Shown here in pieces: positions 790 to 33,279 of a stretch of DNA of 64,000 nucleotides (the stretch's first letter is position 1; each line of letters starts with the position of its first letter). A program made the position numbers and the translations under genes. The stretch lies in assembly GCA_045532975.1 (NCBI GenBank), contig JAZSGX010000057.1, forward strand, positions 3,223-67,222. Reading direction: 5' to 3'. The DNA is from Eubacteriales bacterium (GTDB lineage Bacteria > Bacillota > Clostridia > Oscillospirales > CAG-272). The notes below the pieces were generated by a model. That model was not told the origin of the DNA and did not search any database. It worked only from the letters and a program-made list of their open reading frames with translations.

Positions 790-2940
790 TTATATAAGCT
801 CAAATTCTGCAAATGGCTTGCAATTACTGCTTGGCGCGATAAATACTTGGAATTTGCCCTTTTCTGCCTTGCGTTGCATATCTGCGCCAACAAATGCTAA
901 GGACTCCTCGTTGATTTCAAAGGAAACTACTCTTTCCTCGCCTGCATTAAGCTCGATTTTCTCAAAGCCCTTTAATTCCTTTATAGGTCTTACAACTGAG
1001 CCAACCAAATCTCTTATATAAAGCTGTACCGTTTCCTTTGCCTTATATTTGCCTGTATTTTTAACCTTAACGGATGCGATGATTTTCTCGCCTACTTTCA
1101 TTTCGGTCTTATCTATCTTGTGGTCACTATACTCAAAGGTGGTATAGCTAAGACCGTGACCGAATGGATAAAGAGGTCTGTTTGGTACGTCAATAAAGGA
1201 TGAGGTAAAGGTAATTCTTTCATCAGTTTCCGGCTTTGGTCTGCCTGTCATATATTGGTTATAATAAATCGGGCATTGACCTACGGTATATGGGAAGGAC
1301 ATTGTCAGCTTACCGCTTGGCACTGCTCTGCCAAACACAAGGTTTGCCGCCGCATTACCGCCCTCTGTACCAGGCATCCACATATTAAGAATTGCAGGAG
1401 CGTTTTTGTCAAGTCTTTCAAGGGCTAAGGGTCTGCCTGTAAAGAGCAATACCGCCACGTTTTTGTTAACCTTTAAAACCTCAAACAAAAGCTTGTACTG
1501 TGCGTAAGGAAGCTCCAGCTTAGACTTACAGTGTCCCTCACCGCTATCAAACTGGTCCTCACCTAAGCAAAGAATTACAGCCTCGCTCTTAGCGGCTAAC
1601 TCAACCGCTTCCTCAATACCGGAATAATCAGTGGAATTAAGGGCAATATCACAGCCCTTTGCATACTTGGCTCTGTCACCAACAATAGCCTTAATTCCCT
1701 CAAAAACAGGAATTGTTTCCTCTGCCTTTGCTCCGCAAGGCCAGTTACCGTAAATCTCGCCTGTGTTAGCAAGTGGACCGATAACTGCAACAGACCTAAC
1801 ATCCTCGCTCAAGGGCAACACGCCATCATTCTTCAAAAGAACGGCACATTGCTCTGCGGCGTATCTTGCAAGGTCGCGATGCTCAGGACAAAGAATAATC
1901 CTTTCTGCCTCTTCAACATTTGTATATCTGTATGGATTGTCAAACATACCAAGCTCTTCCTTAAGCTTTAATACGCGAAGAACTGCCGCATCAAGCTGTT
2001 CCATTGTAATTTTGCCCTCGGCAACAAGCTCTTCCATATTCATTGCATAGGTGGTAGATACCATCTCAATATCTCCGCTGGCGGTCATTGCCTTATGCGC
2101 GGCATCCTTAGTATTTTCGGCATATCCGTGAGTAATCATTTCCTTAAATGAAGCATAGTCGCTGATAACAACACCGTCATATCCCCATTCTTTTCTCAAA
2201 ACATCGTTAACAAGCCACTTATTTCCTGCAGCAGGAATACCGTTCAAGCTATTAAATGAGGTCATAAGCATTTTAACACCTGCATCAATTGCTGCCTTGT
2301 ATGTTGGAAGATAATATTCACGCAGTGTTCTTTCACTCATATCAACGGTGTTATAATCTCTGCCCGATTCAGCAGCACCGTATGCGGCAAAATGCTTAAC
2401 GCAAGCAGCAATATTGTATTTACCCATATCACCCTGGTAGCCCTCAACCGTTGCCTTTGCCATTTTACAGCCTAAGTATGGGTCCTCACCGCTTGACTCC
2501 ATAACTCTGCCCCATCTTGCATCACGCACCAAGTCTACCATTGGCGCAAAGGTAACCTGTACGCCGTCAATACTTGCTTCCTTAGCCGCCATTGCCGCAC
2601 AGTCGTGAGCAAGCTTAGTATCAAAGGATGCAGAAATAGCCAAGTTAATTGGATAGATAGTACGATAGCCATGAATAACATCCTGCATTAAAACAAGAGG
2701 AATTTTGTTATTACTGTTTTTAAGGTAGTTTGACTGTATGTCAATCATACGCTGCGCGCCAACTGAGTTTAAGGCACTACCCGCTTCAAATATATAATCC
2801 TTATCTATTTCATCCTGTGCCACAGGGCCTGTAATTTTAACTACACCCTTGTCAACAGAATAAGCCAAGGTGTTAAGCTGCAAAAGCTGATACGCTTTTT
2901 CCTTAACCGTCATTTTGTCCAAAAGAGCTTTGATATCCAT
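790..2940 (-). CDS. Glycoside hydrolase family 3 beta-glucosidase
   Basis: GH3 motifs are present: FAPMVDLVRDARWGRVMESSGEDPYL, KHFAAYG, and the GVVISDY nucleophile region. I moved the start to the ATG at 2940 (MDIKALLDKMTVKEK), which has an AAGGAG just upstream; the upstream extension of the ORF lacks an RBS. Confidence 0.85.
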   Translation of the reverse strand: MDIKALLDKMTVKEKAYQLLQLNTLAYSVDKGVVKITGPVAQDEIDKDYIFEAGSALNSVGAQRMIDIQSNYLKNSNNKIPLVLMQDVIHGYRTIYPINLAISASFDTKLAHDCAAMAAKEASIDGVQVTFAPMVDLVRDARWGRVMESSGEDPYLGCKMAKATVEGYQGDMGKYNIAACVKHFAAYGAAESGRDYNTVDMSERTLREYYLPTYKAAIDAGVKMLMTSFNSLNGIPAAGNKWLVNDVLRKEWGYDGVVISDYASFKEMITHGYAENTKDAAHKAMTASGDIEMVSTTYAMNMEELVAEGKITMEQLDAAVLRVLKLKEELGMFDNPYRYTNVEEAERIILCPEHRDLARYAAEQCAVLLKNDGVLPLSEDVRSVAVIGPLANTGEIYGNWPCGAKAEETIPVFEGIKAIVGDRAKYAKGCDIALNSTDYSGIEEAVELAAKSEAVILCLGEDQFDSGEGHCKSKLELPYAQYKLLFEVLKVNKNVAVLLFTGRPLALERLDKNAPAILNMWMPGTEGGNAAANLVFGRAVPSGKLTMSFPYTVGQCPIYYNQYMTGRPKPETDERITFTSSFIDVPNRPLYPFGHGLSYTTFEYSDHKIDKTEMKVGEKIIASVKVKNTGKYKAKETVQLYIRDLVGSVVRPIKELKGFEKIELNAGEERVVSFEINEESLAFVGADMQRKAEKGKFQVFIAPSSNCKPFAEFELI

Positions 2941-2969
2941 TTGAAATCTCCTTAATGTTATTTGATTAA

Positions 2970-2998
2970 ATTCTACCACATTATTAATAAATAGTCAA
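2970..2998 (-). promoter_or_regulatory. Sigma-A-type promoter for the GH3 gene
   Basis: The minus strand reads TTGACT, a 17-nt spacer, then TGgTAGAAT (extended -10). It lies between the upstream terminator and the GH3 RBS. Confidence 0.45.
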
Positions 2999-3009
2999 TT
3001 ATTTAAACG

Positions 3010-3039
3010 AAAAAAAACGGCACAAGCGTGCCGTTTTTT
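3010..3039 (-). terminator. Rho-independent terminator downstream of the 761-aa lipoprotein gene
   Basis: Stem cggcac/gtgccg with loop aagc, flanked by an A-run and a T-run, so it can work in both directions. Confidence 0.7.
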
Positions 3040-3041
3040 GC

Positions 3042-5327
3042 TTATATTGATTTAAAGAATGATACTTCAGCGTCAACAGTTGAGGTAATTGTAACTCTAC
3101 CAACATTTACATACTGATAAAGGTCAATCATAACCTCAGTGCCTGTCTTTTCAAAGGTGTAAAGCTCTGTGCCCTCTGATGTGTAGATTGTAACCTTGTA
3201 GCTTGCATTCTCATCACTGTTAAGAATGATAAGACCGTAACCAATTGCCAATTGATGCGGACCGTCTGTCCACTCAACCTCGGTTATAGCGAACTCTTGG
3301 TTTGCTGTAATCTTCATTGGATCCTTTGGCTTTGTAAAGCCTTCCCACTCTGCTGTCGTGCCACCACATACACATGGGTCCTGACCGCAAATGCAAAGCG
3401 CATCACTACCGCCCACAGCCTCGGCTGTTACGTCAACATAGCTCTTGTTACATATCAAGCAGGTAACTGTACCAAGCTCTGATGCTTCACCAAGAGTATG
3501 TGCGATAATATCTGTATAATCCCTATTCTCTGTTTTACCGCAATTACCTGCTACGCAAGCGTAAATCGTGTAACCCTCGGCAGTACAGGTTGGAGGAACT
3601 TCCTCTATTGGATTGTCATACTTGTGCTCGCCTGTAGGCTGACCGTACTCATCACCCTCGTATGCAACGAACGTACCGTGACATTCAGAGCATTCATATG
3701 TAGCATAATCAACACAGGTTTCTGCAATTATCTTGTTTTCAAGGTTATAGGTGTGTCTCTTTTCCTCGTCGCCCTTTTTAACCTCTGTATGGTCACAGGC
3801 GATGCCTCTGCAAACATTTTCACACTTGTACTCAAAGGAGCTATCGTTACCGCACCAAGGCTCAACAGCAACATAAAGCTTATGACCAAGCTTAGCAATT
3901 GTGCTCTTGCCCTCGGCATCGTCTGTGGCAAGCTCACCGCAGCCCTCGTTTTGGCAGTAATAGGACCTTTCACCATCCTCAGTACAGGTTGGCTCCAAAG
4001 TAACTATAAAGTGTTTTTCTTCCTCTGCGTCAGCTTCCTTATAATACTTATGTCCTGTTGCATCACCATTTTTTGTTGTGTCCTCCTTGTCACATCTTGA
4101 GCAGATGAGAATGTCAAAGCCGTCAAGAGTACAGGTTGGCGATACTGTTTCACTATATTGCATATCGTGACCGAGCATAGGAATTGCCACGGGAGTTTTG
4201 CCCTCTTCAATAGGCATTTGTCTACAGTTCTGACAAATGTAATATTTCAGGCCGTCTGTATCACAGGTTGGTAAGTCTTCATCAAATATTCTGAAGTGAA
4301 CCCCCGCCTGAGCATCCTCTTCCGTATAATACTTATGACCTATTGCAGGAACAATATCAACTCTGCCGGCGTAATCACATCTTGAACAGGTAACAGGTGT
4401 GTAGCCTTCAACTACGCATCTTGCCGCAATAGGCTCGCCCTTGATTTCATCGTGACCCATCGGGTCAACAAAATCAACCTTATCGGCATAATCACATCTT
4501 GAGCAGGTAACAGGTGTGTAGCCCTTATCTTCGCAGGTTGGCGCAACAACCGTACCCTTTATAACGTCGTGACCGAGCGGGTCAGTGAAATTGGACTTGT
4601 CCTGTGCGTCCCCACATACGGAGCAAATTTTCGCAGTGTATCCACCCTCAGTACAGGTTGGCTCCTCAACATCATCAACGTAATCATGTTCAACCTTGTC
4701 GGTGGGGTTTATTTGGTCGGTAAAATCACATCTTGAGCACATTACCGTCGTATATCCCTCCGCAATGCAGGTAGGGTCAACTACGGTTTCGATTAAATCG
4801 TGACCGAGTGGGTCAACAACATCCTTTTCATCAACAATGTCGCACTTCGAACAGGTAAGCATTGTCTTACCGCCTTCTGTACAGGTTGGCGCAACAGGAA
4901 CCTCCACAAAATCGTGTCCGCCCGGAACAACATCCTTCTTTTCAGAATAGTCACAGCCCTTTCTGGTACAGGTAATTTCTGTGTAACCGTCACCAGCACA
5001 GCTTGGAGAAATAACCCTTTCGGACACGTTGTGTCCTAGTGCGGGAACAACCTCCTCCTTCTTCATACCACAGGTCTTACACTCTAACTTTTTAAGACCA
5101 TCCGTTTCGCAAGTAGCTTCCTTCTGCGCACCGTCCTTAACAAAGCTATGCGTACCTTTATCAGAAACCTCAACACAGCCCTCAACCAAGCATGCGTGCC
5201 AATGGTTGTTGTCGTCCTGACGCCAGGTTGCGCCAAAATTATGCTCATGGTCACCACAGGATGCCAAAGCAAACAGCACCGCTACAAGACCGAGTAGCGA
5301 TAATGCTAATACAATTTTCCTCTTCAT
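3042..5327 (-). CDS. Lipoprotein made of ~14 tandem His-Cys3 (H...C...CxxC) mini-modules plus a ~120-aa C-terminal domain
   Basis: Signal peptide with lipobox LASC (MKRKIVLALSLLGLVAVLFALASC) and a GAGGTG RBS. The unit GHD..(8-10 aa)..PTC..GYT....CSRCD repeats with a period of about 39-45 aa. Confidence 0.8.
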   Translation of the reverse strand: MKRKIVLALSLLGLVAVLFALASCGDHEHNFGATWRQDDNNHWHACLVEGCVEVSDKGTHSFVKDGAQKEATCETDGLKKLECKTCGMKKEEVVPALGHNVSERVISPSCAGDGYTEITCTRKGCDYSEKKDVVPGGHDFVEVPVAPTCTEGGKTMLTCSKCDIVDEKDVVDPLGHDLIETVVDPTCIAEGYTTVMCSRCDFTDQINPTDKVEHDYVDDVEEPTCTEGGYTAKICSVCGDAQDKSNFTDPLGHDVIKGTVVAPTCEDKGYTPVTCSRCDYADKVDFVDPMGHDEIKGEPIAARCVVEGYTPVTCSRCDYAGRVDIVPAIGHKYYTEEDAQAGVHFRIFDEDLPTCDTDGLKYYICQNCRQMPIEEGKTPVAIPMLGHDMQYSETVSPTCTLDGFDILICSRCDKEDTTKNGDATGHKYYKEADAEEEKHFIVTLEPTCTEDGERSYYCQNEGCGELATDDAEGKSTIAKLGHKLYVAVEPWCGNDSSFEYKCENVCRGIACDHTEVKKGDEEKRHTYNLENKIIAETCVDYATYECSECHGTFVAYEGDEYGQPTGEHKYDNPIEEVPPTCTAEGYTIYACVAGNCGKTENRDYTDIIAHTLGEASELGTVTCLICNKSYVDVTAEAVGGSDALCICGQDPCVCGGTTAEWEGFTKPKDPMKITANQEFAITEVEWTDGPHQLAIGYGLIILNSDENASYKVTIYTSEGTELYTFEKTGTEVMIDLYQYVNVGRVTITSTVDAEVSFFKSI

Positions 5328-5545
5328 AAGTCACCTCTATGAAATACTTACATTTTTACATATATATTTTAACATTAATAAATGAAAATATCAAGTGCTT
5401 TTAGCACATTTGTACAAAATAATTGTCATATTGCCTACGTTTTTGTTAATAAAACGCTCACGGTAAAATTCAATTCAAAAATTATTGTTGATTAATTTGT
5501 ACGATTGTGTTACAATTATGACATAAGACTTTGGGGGAGGCTTTT

Positions 5546-10218: not shown

Positions 10219-11055
10219 ATGGCTCAATTTACAAACCAGGCACAAATTACCTACGGTAACGTTGTTGCCAACTCGAATATTGCGGTTGGTGAGATTATCT
10301 CCTCATTATCCGCCACAAAGACAGCTATCAGAGAGACCTACAATCAAGGCTCAGACATCACCTATATTATCAATATAGTTAATGCGGGTGCTAATCTGCT
10401 TTCGAATTTAACTGTCAATGACAATTTAGGCGCATATACCTTTGGCACAGGCACGCTTGTTCCTCTTGATTATATAGACGGAACGCTCCGCTTTTTTGTA
10501 AACGGAATTTTACAGCCCACCCCCACAATTGATACAACAAACGGTTTAACCATAACGGGCATTTCCGTCCCTGCCGGCGGCACTGCTCTTTTGGTTTATG
10601 AGGCTAATGTAAACCGCTTTGCTCCTATCGGTGAAGGCGGCACTATTACAAACGAGGTTGTTATCACAGGTGACTGCGGCAATGTAGTAGCTACCGAAAC
10701 GGTGACTGCTCTTACAGAGGCACAGATAACAATTACCAAGTCAGTATCTCCCGTGCCTGTTGCCTGTGGCGATACCGTCACCTACACCTTCCTCCTCCAA
10801 AACTACGGTGCTACACCTTTAAATGCAACAGACAACGCTGTTGTAAGCGACATTTTCAATCCTGTGCTTAGTAACGTTACCGCATCCCTTAACGGTGTTG
10901 CGGTTTTATTCACCTATGATGAAACAACAGGTGAGTTTGCAACCACCCCCGGCGCAGTTACGGTCCCTGCCGCAACAATTACTCAAGACCCTATAACAGG
11001 CGCGTGGACAGTTACTCCCGGCGCTTCAACTCTTATCGTATCCGGTACAATCTAA
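10219..11055 (+). CDS. Leaderless two-domain beta-sandwich protein (DUF11 / 'conserved repeat domain'-like)
   Basis: 278 aa, rich in Thr/Val/Asn/Gly and with no signal peptide. The N-terminus is MAQFTNQAQITYGNVVANSNI, and there are two similar halves (..ITYIINIVNAG.. and ..VTYTFLLQNYG..). A strong terminator follows. Confidence 0.65.
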   Translation: MAQFTNQAQITYGNVVANSNIAVGEIISSLSATKTAIRETYNQGSDITYIINIVNAGANLLSNLTVNDNLGAYTFGTGTLVPLDYIDGTLRFFVNGILQPTPTIDTTNGLTITGISVPAGGTALLVYEANVNRFAPIGEGGTITNEVVITGDCGNVVATETVTALTEAQITITKSVSPVPVACGDTVTYTFLLQNYGATPLNATDNAVVSDIFNPVLSNVTASLNGVAVLFTYDETTGEFATTPGAVTVPAATITQDPITGAWTVTPGASTLIVSGTI

Positions 11056-20333: not shown

Positions 20334-20417
20334 GCGAGAGTGGCGGAATTGGCAGACGCGCACGTTTGAGGGGCGTGTGATTTGTTCGTACGGGTTCAAG
20401 TCCCGTTTCTCGCACCA
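20334..20417 (+). tRNA. tRNA-Leu (anticodon GAG), CCA encoded
   Basis: Hand-folded: acceptor gcgagag/ttctcgc, anticodon stem cacgt/gcgtg with loop ttGAGgg, a long variable arm, and the T-arm ggttcaagtcc. It ends in ACCA. Confidence 0.9.
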
Positions 20418-31194: not shown

Positions 31195-33279
31195 TTATGC
31201 CTGTGGAGTGTTTACAACCTCTGGCAATTGGAAGTTGAAATGCGCTATTGTAAGTCCAATGTCAGCCTCTGTCAAAATGGAGTTAAAGCCGTCCAAGAAG
31301 CAAATGTACATAGCACCAAACAAGGTCTTTGCGTCGCTTGCCTTCAAGGAGCTGTCGCCCGATGTCTTATAATTGATGTAATCGTAGGAGAATATCTTGT
31401 TGTAAACGCTTGAGTCGAGAATACCGTTTACATTCTTTGCCTGTGTGGCTGTGGAAACGCTACCCTCCATAGTGTACTGTGACCAAAGATGGTCGTACAG
31501 CCTTACGTCATAGCTTTCCTTTTGTCCGTCAAGAACAAACTCAAAGGTGTACAAGGCTCTGCCACCCTCTGTCAAGGTAACGCCTGCTACAAGCTTTTTA
31601 GTTACCTCATCATATTCAAGACGTAAAATTCTACCGTTCTTTTCAGCAGTCTCCTCGCGAAGCACCTTACTTACAACGTACTTGCCGTCAACGGTTTTTT
31701 CTTCGTAATTTAACATCAAATAGTAGATGAGCGTATTCACACCGCTGACATCCAAATTTTCAAGATAAAAATCCTCTACAGTTTTGTCAAGGTTCTTTTC
31801 CATAGCGGTCAGCTTGCTTGATACAACGGCAAAATTAAGGTTTTGTCCCTTGTCGGCAACCTGGTTGTTTATGCCCACAACCTCACCGCGAGCGTTAACA
31901 AGCGGTCCACCGCTGCTGCCTGACGAAATAGGCGCGGTGAAAACAACCATATCAATACCGTTAACCACCTTGCTCGGGTTAGAAACAATACCGCTTGTAA
32001 ACACGGAATCAACGCCTAAGGGATTACCTAAAGCATACACAGGGTCGCCTGTTTCAAGCATTTCCGCAGAAATATTCAAATAAGAGTTGCCCTCGGATTC
32101 TACCTTCAAAATCACCAAATCATTGCTTGGATCAAAGGCTAATATTTTGGTAACCTCAAGCTCTACTCCGTCATAACGCTTCACCTTAATTTTATTGGCG
32201 CCCGCTATAACGTGGTAATTTGTAGCTATCTCGCCCTTATCACTTATAAAGAAGCCTGAGCCTAAATTGTGCATCCTGCCGTCCTTATCGCAGGATTCAA
32301 TTCTAACGGTAGCAGATGCTATCATACTATAAATTTGCGTTGGCAAATAGTTAGTTTCATATCTGTTTTCCTGCTCAAGACCGCAGTTTTTACAGGTATA
32401 TTTGATTATTCCCTCGTCACCGTCTTTTTCCGGCGGAATAGTTACCACCAAAAAGCTATGGTTGTTTTTGTCAAGAGAAACACCGCGACGGTTAAGACCC
32501 GTATTACAGAATCTGCAAATCTGAACCTCAACGCCCTCAGAGCTACAGGTTGGCGCCTTTTCAGTAATCCAAGCGCCTGCTACGTGCGCCTCTGTTGGCT
32601 TTAAGAAATCGGATTCTACCGTATGACCGCAAAGCTTACAGGTAAACAGCTTATGCTCACCCTTTGCACAGGTGCCTGCAACTATGGACTCGTCATAATC
32701 GTGAGAAAGCTTTTCACCAACGACAACCGTCGATTTAATCACCTCACCGCACTTAGTACATATTTTGCCCTTTACAAAATTTTCCGTGCAGCTTGCATTA
32801 GTTATGATTTGATATTCCTCGCCTGCAACGTGTCCCTCAAGCTCCTCACGAAGAGTTTGAGCCTCCTCACCGCAAACAAGGCAAATTTTAACCTTTACTT
32901 CATTTTCGGTACAGGTACCGTTAACCTTTGTCTGCCACTCTCCCGGTTGATGAGCGGGGGCTGGGTGAACCTTGGTTTCAACAACAACACCGCATACCTT
33001 ACAAAGTCTTTCCTCGACCTTACTAACAAGACACGCTTCCTCAACCTTTGTTTGCCAAGGAAGTGGGTCGTGACCCTTACGCGGTATTGCCTTCAAGGTA
33101 ACAACCTCGCCACAAATAACACAAATTTTTACATCCTTACCATCCTCTGTACAGGTAGCAGATATGGTGTGCTCGGTATAGTTGTGTATGTGGTCAAGGT
33201 CCTCGTTAGAGCAGGACACTGCCAAAAATACACATAACACAACTGCCATAAGCATAGTAATATGAATAAGTTTACGCAT
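31195..33279 (-). CDS. Lipoprotein: 7 His-Cys3 mini-modules + trypsin-like (S1C/HtrA-like) serine protease + ~190-aa C-terminal domain
   Basis: Lipobox LAVSC and an AGGAG RBS. The modules follow H..(10-12 aa)..C..(9 aa)..CxxCG. Catalytic-triad motifs are NYHVIAG, NDLVILKV and SSGSSGGPLV. Confidence 0.8.
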   Translation of the reverse strand: MRKLIHITMLMAVVLCVFLAVSCSNEDLDHIHNYTEHTISATCTEDGKDVKICVICGEVVTLKAIPRKGHDPLPWQTKVEEACLVSKVEERLCKVCGVVVETKVHPAPAHQPGEWQTKVNGTCTENEVKVKICLVCGEEAQTLREELEGHVAGEEYQIITNASCTENFVKGKICTKCGEVIKSTVVVGEKLSHDYDESIVAGTCAKGEHKLFTCKLCGHTVESDFLKPTEAHVAGAWITEKAPTCSSEGVEVQICRFCNTGLNRRGVSLDKNNHSFLVVTIPPEKDGDEGIIKYTCKNCGLEQENRYETNYLPTQIYSMIASATVRIESCDKDGRMHNLGSGFFISDKGEIATNYHVIAGANKIKVKRYDGVELEVTKILAFDPSNDLVILKVESEGNSYLNISAEMLETGDPVYALGNPLGVDSVFTSGIVSNPSKVVNGIDMVVFTAPISSGSSGGPLVNARGEVVGINNQVADKGQNLNFAVVSSKLTAMEKNLDKTVEDFYLENLDVSGVNTLIYYLMLNYEEKTVDGKYVVSKVLREETAEKNGRILRLEYDEVTKKLVAGVTLTEGGRALYTFEFVLDGQKESYDVRLYDHLWSQYTMEGSVSTATQAKNVNGILDSSVYNKIFSYDYINYKTSGDSSLKASDAKTLFGAMYICFLDGFNSILTEADIGLTIAHFNFQLPEVVNTPQA

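Follow-up and report, generated by a model that had tools for sequence, protein, structure and literature searches.

Rod-like domains with putative zinc sites were described in 2025 in the immunoglobulin A (IgA) protease of Thomasclavelia ramosa (IgAse or IgAP), where they were named ZBD1 and ZBD2 in one study (PMC12237041) and CTD2 and CTD4 in another (PMC12415215), on the basis of AlphaFold models and SAXS (small-angle X-ray scattering) only. ZBD1 and ZBD2 are modeled as three-stranded up-and-down sheets placed end to end, three of which span ~110 Å, with putative zinc sites at the subdomain interfaces; occupancy of these sites is described by the authors as "pending experimental validation" (PMC12237041). 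The sites comprise four of the His2Cys2 type and one Cys3His, the latter placed in ZBD2 as site 8 (PMC12237041). By SAXS, isolated CTD2 is a fully extended rod in agreement with its AlphaFold model, and "an uncharacterized periscope domain fold" has been proposed for CTD2 and CTD4 (PMC12415215). In the window examined here (the whole 64,000-nucleotide stretch of contig JAZSGX010000057.1, from a Eubacteriales bacterium), the gene at 3042–5327 on the minus strand encodes a 761-amino acid (aa) lipoprotein which is a particularly clean, array-type member of this domain kind, recognized in 2025 and experimentally unvalidated.

The sole sequence match of the lipoprotein in the PDB is a construct of the T. 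ramosa IgA protease (9qa6_A; phmmer, E = 1e-12), of which the stretches 906–980 and 1070–1138 align to query residues 24–100, that is, the cap and first module of the rod, with the pattern H...W...HW.C...C...H...C..C kept between the two. Beyond sequence homology, the two proteins share three-stranded sheets joined end to end and Cys/His tetrads at the interfaces (assigned here through co-variation), and for each, a surface protein of a Firmicute from the gut, a rigid, metal-associated spacer is proposed; metal binding is predicted in both. In contrast to the lipoprotein, the IgA protease has 3 + 2 sheets with mostly His2Cys2 sites of the "HW...C...C" form, interleaved with Ig-like domains, and its rod lies C terminal to the protease and is associated with a sortase anchor. 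The lipoprotein carries a homotypic run of 13 Cys3His modules, an N-terminal lipid anchor, and its functional domain at the distal C terminus.

Taken together, the observations below make it probable that the gene encodes a membrane-anchored lipoprotein of a monoderm gut Clostridia bacterium in which a metal-stapled thin rod carries a C-terminal head. In the proposed arrangement, three-stranded sheets of ~40 aa would follow one another end to end, each linked to the next through a metal site of tetrahedral geometry that most likely contains Zn2+. To such a site, sheet i−1 would contribute the first Cys (C1), at its top, and sheet i, at its bottom, its boundary His and C2-xx-C3 knuckle. The first sheet, which has no predecessor, would supply a second His instead (HxH), and a half-module with a CxxC would close the last site, giving tetrahedral Cys3His sites along the rod and His2Cys2 at the cap. 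The rod would then serve as a spacer that holds the head off the membrane and takes it across the cell wall and past it, with a length of ~50 nm when ~110 Å per three sheets is extrapolated to 14–15 sheets. A length of ~50 nm would be enough to pass a Gram-positive wall. The features listed here, and the conservation, homology, predicted fold, co-variation, and family size described further on, are what the analysis shows; which metal is bound, how rigid and long the rod is, whether it is exposed at the surface, and what the head binds are what we infer from them. The features are as follows.

3042–5327, minus strand: whole coding sequence, 761 aa plus stop codon; lipoprotein with a rod of His/Cys3 modules and a C-terminal head.
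5256–5327, minus strand: signal peptide and lipobox, residues 1–24 (MKRK, hydrophobic core, LAS-C24).
5148–5255, minus strand: N-terminal cap, residues 25–60, with H27-x-H29, H42-W43, C46-x4-C51, and H60, invariant in orthologs.
3498–5150, minus strand: thirteen His-to-His modules, residues 60–610, delimited by module boundaries, AlphaFold2 (AF2) strands, and module alignment.
4335–4571, minus strand: modules 6 and 7, residues 253–331, the sole pair with notable DNA similarity, at a 117-bp offset.
3450–3500, minus strand: closing half-module H610...C623-x2-C626, lacking C1; would complete the last bridging site with C581.
3366–3395, minus strand: CxC-x4-CxC cluster (CICGQDPCVC; C645, C647, C652, C654), invariant in orthologs, joining rod and head.
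3045–3365, minus strand: head domain, residues 655–761 (107 aa), a predicted small jelly-roll-like β-sandwich, placed by AF2, Foldseek, and a hidden Markov model (HMM).

The translated protein contains 49 Cys (48 besides the lipobox Cys24) and 23 His. Boundary His residues at positions 60, 99, 138, 176, 214, 253, 292, 331, 387, 426, 482, 525, 568, and 610 delimit 13 His-to-His modules of 39–57 aa with three Cys each, arranged as H...C1-x7-9-C2-x2-4(8)-C3...H. A first-pass annotation of the same DNA had counted ~14 tandem His-Cys3 units of 38–55 aa, which corresponds well to these 13 modules plus the closing half-module, and its example peptides are present in the translation. Two of the modules are long, each with a 13-aa insertion (GH-KYY...x9...H-F), at residues 331–344 and 426–439 (approximately 4296–4337 and 4011–4052, minus strand). 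In an alignment of 21 orthologs, which are 40–95% identical to the lipoprotein, Cys or His occupies 44 of the 69 invariant columns, and 62 of the 72 Cys/His residues of the query are at least 90% conserved. Because the invariant columns are mostly Cys or His across orthologs, the periodic pattern is not due to chance. The less conserved Cys/His residues are those in a module missing from some orthologs, H344 (Asp in three orthologs, while H439, in the other long module, is ≥90% conserved), and H44, C506, H513, H550, and H691, the last five of which are plainly not ligands.

At its N terminus, the protein has a positively charged n-region, a hydrophobic core, across which (residues 2–23) AF2 predicts a helix, and a lipobox of the form [LVI][ASTVI][GAS]C whose S23 and C24 are invariant among the orthologs. 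This textbook lipobox predicts a lipid-anchored bacterial lipoprotein, modified as a substrate of Lgt and LspA. The full protein was modeled by AF2 from the alignment with the 21 orthologs, yielding good local confidence (mean predicted local distance difference test score [pLDDT] 78.8) with a predicted template modeling score (pTM) of 0.31. Secondary structure assigned to the model by DSSP shows three predicted β-strands per module throughout residues 60–610, with pLDDT mostly 70–87. In the module between H138 and H176, for example, H138 is followed by strand 1 (140–145), C149 (C1) in the turn that connects it to strand 2, strand 2 itself (153–159) ending at C159 (C2), C162 (C3), strand 3 (165–171), and H176. 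Each module is thus predicted to be a three-stranded up-and-down β-sheet with little hydrophobic core. With an up-and-down topology, H(i), C2(i), and C3(i) lie at one end of the sheet and C1(i) and H(i+1) at the other, so that neither H and C1 nor C1 and C2 of one module would be able to share a metal ion. The extended lipid-anchored surface stalk envisaged in the first-pass annotation is in line with the lipobox, with the predicted array of strands, and with the SAXS rod of the homologous CTD2 (PMC12415215).

The assignment of ligands to sites was examined by co-variation among 1,650 modules extracted with a module HMM from 121 homologs, and again in a repeat set of 3,900 modules from 143 other proteins. 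The His downstream of a module was missing for 13 of 28 modules lacking C1, as compared to three of 1,566 modules containing C1 (Fisher p = 3e-22), and the repeat set gave the same pattern (14/63 versus 11/3,750; p = 9e-20). The upstream His was missing from none of the C1-less modules in either set (0/28 and 0/63). A boundary of the HxH type came next after 8 of 14 C1-less modules but after only 12 of 1,193 with C1 (p = 3e-12), and in the repeat set after 16 of 30 and 50 of 2,595, respectively. In the 121 proteins, the 13 modules without both C1 and a downstream His are each the last of their array, with elements such as a dockerin, a transmembrane anchor, or a CarboxypepD_reg-like domain coming after them; most of the remaining 15 C1-less modules precede a boundary with a second His (HxH, or CxH once) or have Glu in place of C1. 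Since loss of C1 tracks the downstream and never the upstream His, the simplest reading of these sequences is that each site bridges two modules, as {C1(i−1), H(i), C2(i), C3(i)}, and that a second His stands in where the preceding C1 is absent. In two of the 21 orthologs of the lipoprotein, H29 is replaced by Cys.

This bridging scheme explains the invariant H27-x-H29, the presence of H42 as the C1-equivalent of the cap, and a closing half-module that has a CxxC but no C1. Under it, the lipoprotein would hold 15 complete four-ligand bridging or cap sites plus one Cys4 cluster, using 47 of its 49 Cys and leaving over the lipobox Cys and the nonconserved C506. The CxC-x4-CxC cluster, across which (residues 645–654) AF2 pLDDT falls below 50, may be this fourth type of metal site (Cys4) or may instead be a disulfide knot or disulfide pair.

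Scanning a six-frame translation of the window with the module HMM identified a further protein of this kind.

31195–33279, minus strand: second rod lipoprotein, 694 aa.

Behind a lipobox (AVS-C23), its rod starts with H30-x-H32, continues through six full modules, and ends in a closing half-module without C1 (H274...C296-x2-C299), and the bridging scheme accounts for all 20 rod Cys; in both lipoproteins, every invariant ligand is used. The rod is followed by a Trypsin_2 protease domain (residues 340–470; E = 4.6e-28) and a C-terminal region of ~220 aa. That the same anchor and rod bear a different head in the 694-aa protein argues for a role of the rod as spacer or stalk.

The head of the 761-aa protein was modeled with high confidence (pLDDT 90.3, pTM 0.82) as a small all-β sandwich with two long central strands, and it has no Pfam match. 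Weak Foldseek matches in the PDB include TNF-like lectins (PLTL, BC2L-C-Nt), the carbohydrate-binding module (CBM) families CBM61 and CBM6 (E = 2.5e-3 to 4.6e-3), the Anabaena sensory rhodopsin transducer, a fucosidase β-sandwich, and small viral jelly rolls; the top matches have TM-scores of ~0.3–0.55 at 7–25% sequence identity. In BFVD, the top matches are uncharacterized phage proteins, C1q-domain, collagen-repeat, and tail-fiber proteins, and other tail proteins (E ~2e-4 to 4e-3). A head HMM run over the proteins already collected placed the domain only at the extreme C terminus in 42 relatives, with total lengths of 427–830 aa and one 92-aa fragment, a spread in length that matches differing numbers of modules. 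A word-index search with the head alone returned one 92-aa fragment as the only homolog. The head resembles lectin, CBM, and fiber-tip domains in being a compact all-β sandwich (~100 aa) that sits at the far tip of a long stalk, and differs from them in that no binding-site residues can be transferred to it. Guessing from this architecture, the head may be a ligand-binding, possibly glycan-binding, tip.

Several observations weigh against a metal-stapled rod with a binding tip. The pTM of the whole rod means that AF2 predicts neither the orientation of successive modules nor the straightness of the array, and the bridging wiring is drawn from strand topology and co-variation rather than from model coordinates. 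The extra, mostly conserved His of the two long modules (H344, H439) has no assigned role in the scheme. For the head, Foldseek found nothing in the PDB at E ≤ 1e-3, the best match being the PLTL lectin at E = 1.7e-3. No member of the family has a determined metal content or a solved structure, and the experimental maps of the IgA protease end at residue 876, before the ZBDs (PMC12237041). Lastly, the bridging scheme would place the Cys3His site of the IgA protease at the junction of ZBD1 subdomains I and II, not an obvious match for the published label (PMC12237041), even though the totals agree (four His2Cys2 and one Cys3His). The ZBD2 segment in the 9qa6_A alignment has four Cys, too few for a His2Cys2 and a Cys3His site together. 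Two possible explanations of the mismatch are that it is an issue of labeling in that study or that the ZBD2 sequence in the alignment is incomplete.

Among other explanations of the array, the one proposed in the first-pass annotation is a string of self-contained zinc-ribbon or treble-clef beads, in which the H, C1, C2, and C3 of each unit bind zinc and flexible linkers join the units. His/Cys3 spacing of this kind is typical of zinc-ribbon or treble-clef knuckles. One His and three Cys per repeat fit the stoichiometry, and the CxxC region is matched weakly, below threshold, in Pfam by Zn_ribbon_13, which scores 17.6 bits where 23 are required, and by the TNB zinc ribbon of Cas12f. The module also shares with a classical zinc ribbon such as the TFIIS C-terminal domain a CxxC knuckle at a β-hairpin, a small three-stranded antiparallel sheet, and tetrahedral ligation by Cys and His, and one subdomain of the IgA protease distantly resembles the TFIIS ribbon (PMC12237041). 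A zinc ribbon, however, holds its metal between two knuckles of one domain, whereas each rod module has a single CxxC, the other ligands of the proposed site (the previous C1 and the boundary His) coming from the module junction; moreover, zinc ribbons are nucleic acid-associated and the rod modules extracellular. C1 co-varies with the downstream rather than the upstream His, array-terminal modules retain H, C2, and C3 while losing C1, and in the AF2 model H and C1, as well as C1 and C2, lie at opposite ends of a six-residue strand. With self-contained beads, moreover, each closing half-module (H610...CxxC; H274...CxxC in the second lipoprotein) would have only three ligands, and there would be no need for the invariant H27/H29 pair. 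We consider beads of this type unlikely. What stands of the earlier proposal of structural zinc beads is the invariant, metal ligand-like His/Cys3 set; self-containment does not, since co-variation points to sites that bridge modules, and the assignment to a zinc-ribbon or treble-clef knuckle is at odds with the one CxxC per module and the sub-threshold Pfam scores. The zinc-stalk idea as such is largely right, and a module is more aptly pictured as a sheet bearing half of a site at either end. Still less probable is a metal-free Cys-rich repeat stabilized by disulfides, comparable to EGF-like domains. An extracellular location, where disulfides are common, and 49 Cys in 761 aa would suit such a repeat. 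Metal ligation is favored over disulfides because His, Cys, and Glu interchange at equivalent positions (a lost Cys is offset by the His of an HxH or by Glu, and H29 swaps with Cys) and because each module has an odd number of Cys (three), alongside an invariant His. In addition, the hosts are strict hindgut anaerobes according to record titles, and the experimental structures and predicted models of the IgA protease contain no disulfides despite 24 Cys (PMC12237041).

Two further alternatives accept metal binding and assign it another purpose. An array serving chiefly as a surface reservoir, buffer, or scavenger of zinc or other metals, rather than as a structural spacer, would account for ~16 predicted sites in 761 aa, for arrays of up to 81 modules, and for the occurrence of the module in 33,637 representative proteins. 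Against this, full tetrahedral Cys3His and Cys2His2 sites are typically tight and structural rather than exchangeable, as is established and also argued in PMC12415215; many architectures place the modules between an anchor and a domain with an enzymatic or adhesive function; and no zinc-uptake genes adjoin the gene. A reservoir is thus improbable as the main function. The ligand composition, and nothing else, would also fit iron or Fe-S sites forming an extracellular redox chain. Three Cys and one His are likewise the ligand set of mitoNEET-type 2Fe-2S centers. One site per ~37 Å sheet (an extrapolated spacing) is, however, far past electron-tunneling distances, the His2Cys2 variants of the cap and of the IgA protease resemble zinc-finger sites, and neighborhood inspection found no redox partner genes near 3042–5327, just as it found none for zinc uptake. 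A redox chain is accordingly the least credible of these explanations, with hardly any likelihood.

If the sites are bridging staples of zinc, as preferred here, one extension would be that they gate the stiffness or length of the rod, which would extend or collapse depending on how much zinc the gut lumen offers or on the oxidation of thiols there. Because the rods are almost without hydrophobic core, how stiff and how long they are would hinge on metal occupancy; nonetheless, we regard gating as a speculative suggestion with a small chance of being correct. If true, metal or redox gating would span tens of thousands of Firmicute surface proteins, among them adhesins, proteases, and cellulosome and S-layer components, with triggers that could include host calprotectin, oxygen, and reactive species, and would amount to a previously unrecognized, family-wide control of cell-surface architecture. 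Confirmation of bridging would itself establish that extracellular rods can be built on a new structural principle, that of metal-stapled single-layer β-sheets. For such work, the window supplies two compact, tractable examples (761 and 694 aa) with a pure array and clean ends, and the question is relevant to the engineering of the IgA protease, an enzyme under study for therapeutic use.

The family to which the module belongs is large. A 40-position profile built from nine modules of the window, compared with 1.84 billion representative proteins (50% clustering), matched 33,637 proteins at 1e-3, 15,762 at 1e-10, and 3,447 at 1e-30, with up to 81 matched stretches in the longest arrays and proteins of up to 7,583 aa. 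A word-indexed homolog search returned at least 6,886 significant matches from 8,000 scored candidates. The first-pass annotation had described the motif as one that keeps recurring among the surface proteins of gut Clostridia, and had been unable to name a characterized family for it; the profile count agrees with the former, and the latter is matched by Pfam-A and NCBIfam, which contain no model of the module and leave the whole 761-aa protein without a match at E ≤ 10. When a three-module fragment was compared with Pfam, all zinc-ribbon matches were sub-threshold, Zn_ribbon_13 being the best. Likewise, the module profile had no significant match among PDB sequences, the best being a CTCF zinc finger (E = 0.029) over the CxxC only. 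Partner domains in the homologs are all extracellular or cell-surface (SLH, CWB2, dockerin, cohesin, BspA-type leucine-rich repeats, Flg_new, CAP, Big_2, fn3, and GH85_C), and one homolog of 973 aa has 25 modules and no Pfam match. Named sources are metagenome-assembled genomes (MAGs) of uncultured Clostridia, Oscillospiraceae, Acutalibacteraceae, and Ruminococcus, largely from ruminant hindguts. In genome contigs, a scan with the single 761-aa protein found no relative; an alignment-based scan found 14 loci, all in MAGs of uncultured Clostridia or Oscillospiraceae from animal hindguts. Judged by these profile matches, the module ranks among the more abundant unmodeled repeats of gut Firmicutes. 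Its published description is limited to two accessory domains of one IgA protease, and a domain family for it would annotate thousands of "hypothetical" surface proteins.

A further comparison is offered by the Periscope Proteins in the sense of Whelan et al. 2021 (SasG/Aap G5-E, Rib, and SHIRT; PMC8201768), which similarly have a surface anchor at one end, a functional domain at the other, and a rod between them, and whose G5 domains are single-layer sheets with little hydrophobic core. Relatives of the 761-aa lipoprotein, at 543–830 aa, differ in their number of modules. The orientation is reversed in the lipoprotein, in which the anchor is at the N terminus and the head at the C terminus. 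Canonical Periscope repeats such as SHIRT are 82–100% identical and shift in copy number from strain to strain by recombination (PMC8201768); adjacent modules of the lipoprotein, in contrast, are only 18–62% identical in protein and 47–74% in DNA.

The highest of these DNA values belongs to modules 6 and 7, which are identical at 89 of 120 positions (74%) and share no exact run longer than 20 nt, as compared to 47–64% for other pairs. Within them, 4371–4406 and 4488–4523 match at 34 of 36 positions at a 117-bp offset, exactly as first reported, and the match falls on the conserved GYTPVTCSRCDY block; Tandem Repeats Finder detects the same 117-bp period over 4367–4584 (1.9 copies, 79% matches). 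The earlier note had taken this as a sign of recent unit duplication with scope for recombinational change in copy number. That modules 6 and 7 duplicated recently or evolve in concert was rejected, since each keeps its own orthologs across species, with an ortholog-specific signature in relatives only 53–73% identical. The one close relative (P0001), 95% identical, has the same length of 761 aa; ortholog lengths are 718, 729, 757–762, and 772–813 aa, and whole-module insertions or deletions occur only between orthologs that are ≤58% identical. By these comparisons, the module duplication is old, not recent. At a syntenic locus in a Clostridia MAG (L001), the lipoprotein is 54% identical whereas seven neighboring genes are 77–96% identical, a fast divergence that is typical of an exposed surface protein. 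Two paralogs (P0040 and P0051) carry a domain of ~150 aa inserted mid-rod (columns ~505–660 of alignment A1), whose sequence suggests a CBM32-like or F5/8-type-C (discoidin) domain.

The gene at 3042–5327 is flanked by expression signals of its own.

5366–5394, minus strand: promoter-like site (TTGATA, 17 nt, TG-TAAAAT), ~40 nt upstream of the start codon; consensus match only.
5332–5337, minus strand: ribosome-binding site GAGGTG, 5 nt before the ATG, read directly from the sequence.
3012–3039, minus strand: terminator-like hairpin with a GC-rich 12-bp stem and T run, 3 nt past the stop codon, separating the coding sequence from the glycoside hydrolase family 3 (GH3) gene.

Given its own ribosome-binding site, promoter-like site, and hairpin directly after the stop codon, the gene is most likely monocistronic. 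Directly downstream lies a GH3 β-glucosidase (790–2979, minus strand; Glyco_hydro_3, Glyco_hydro_3_C, and Fn3-like domains) without a signal peptide. Functional coupling of the two was considered and set aside: adjacency occurs in three of six contexts (the window, L003, and L015, and not L001, L002, or L004), a terminator lies between the genes, each has a separate promoter-like site, and the enzyme has no signal peptide.

Elsewhere in the window, tRNA-Leu(GAG) at 20334–20417 (plus strand) is the only RNA gene that ARAGORN and Rfam, the latter at its gathering thresholds, detect. A Thr/Val/Asn-rich protein of 278 aa, which contains a DUF11 repeat according to Pfam (E = 1.8e-10) and is encoded at 10219–11055 on the plus strand, may be another surface or spore-associated protein.

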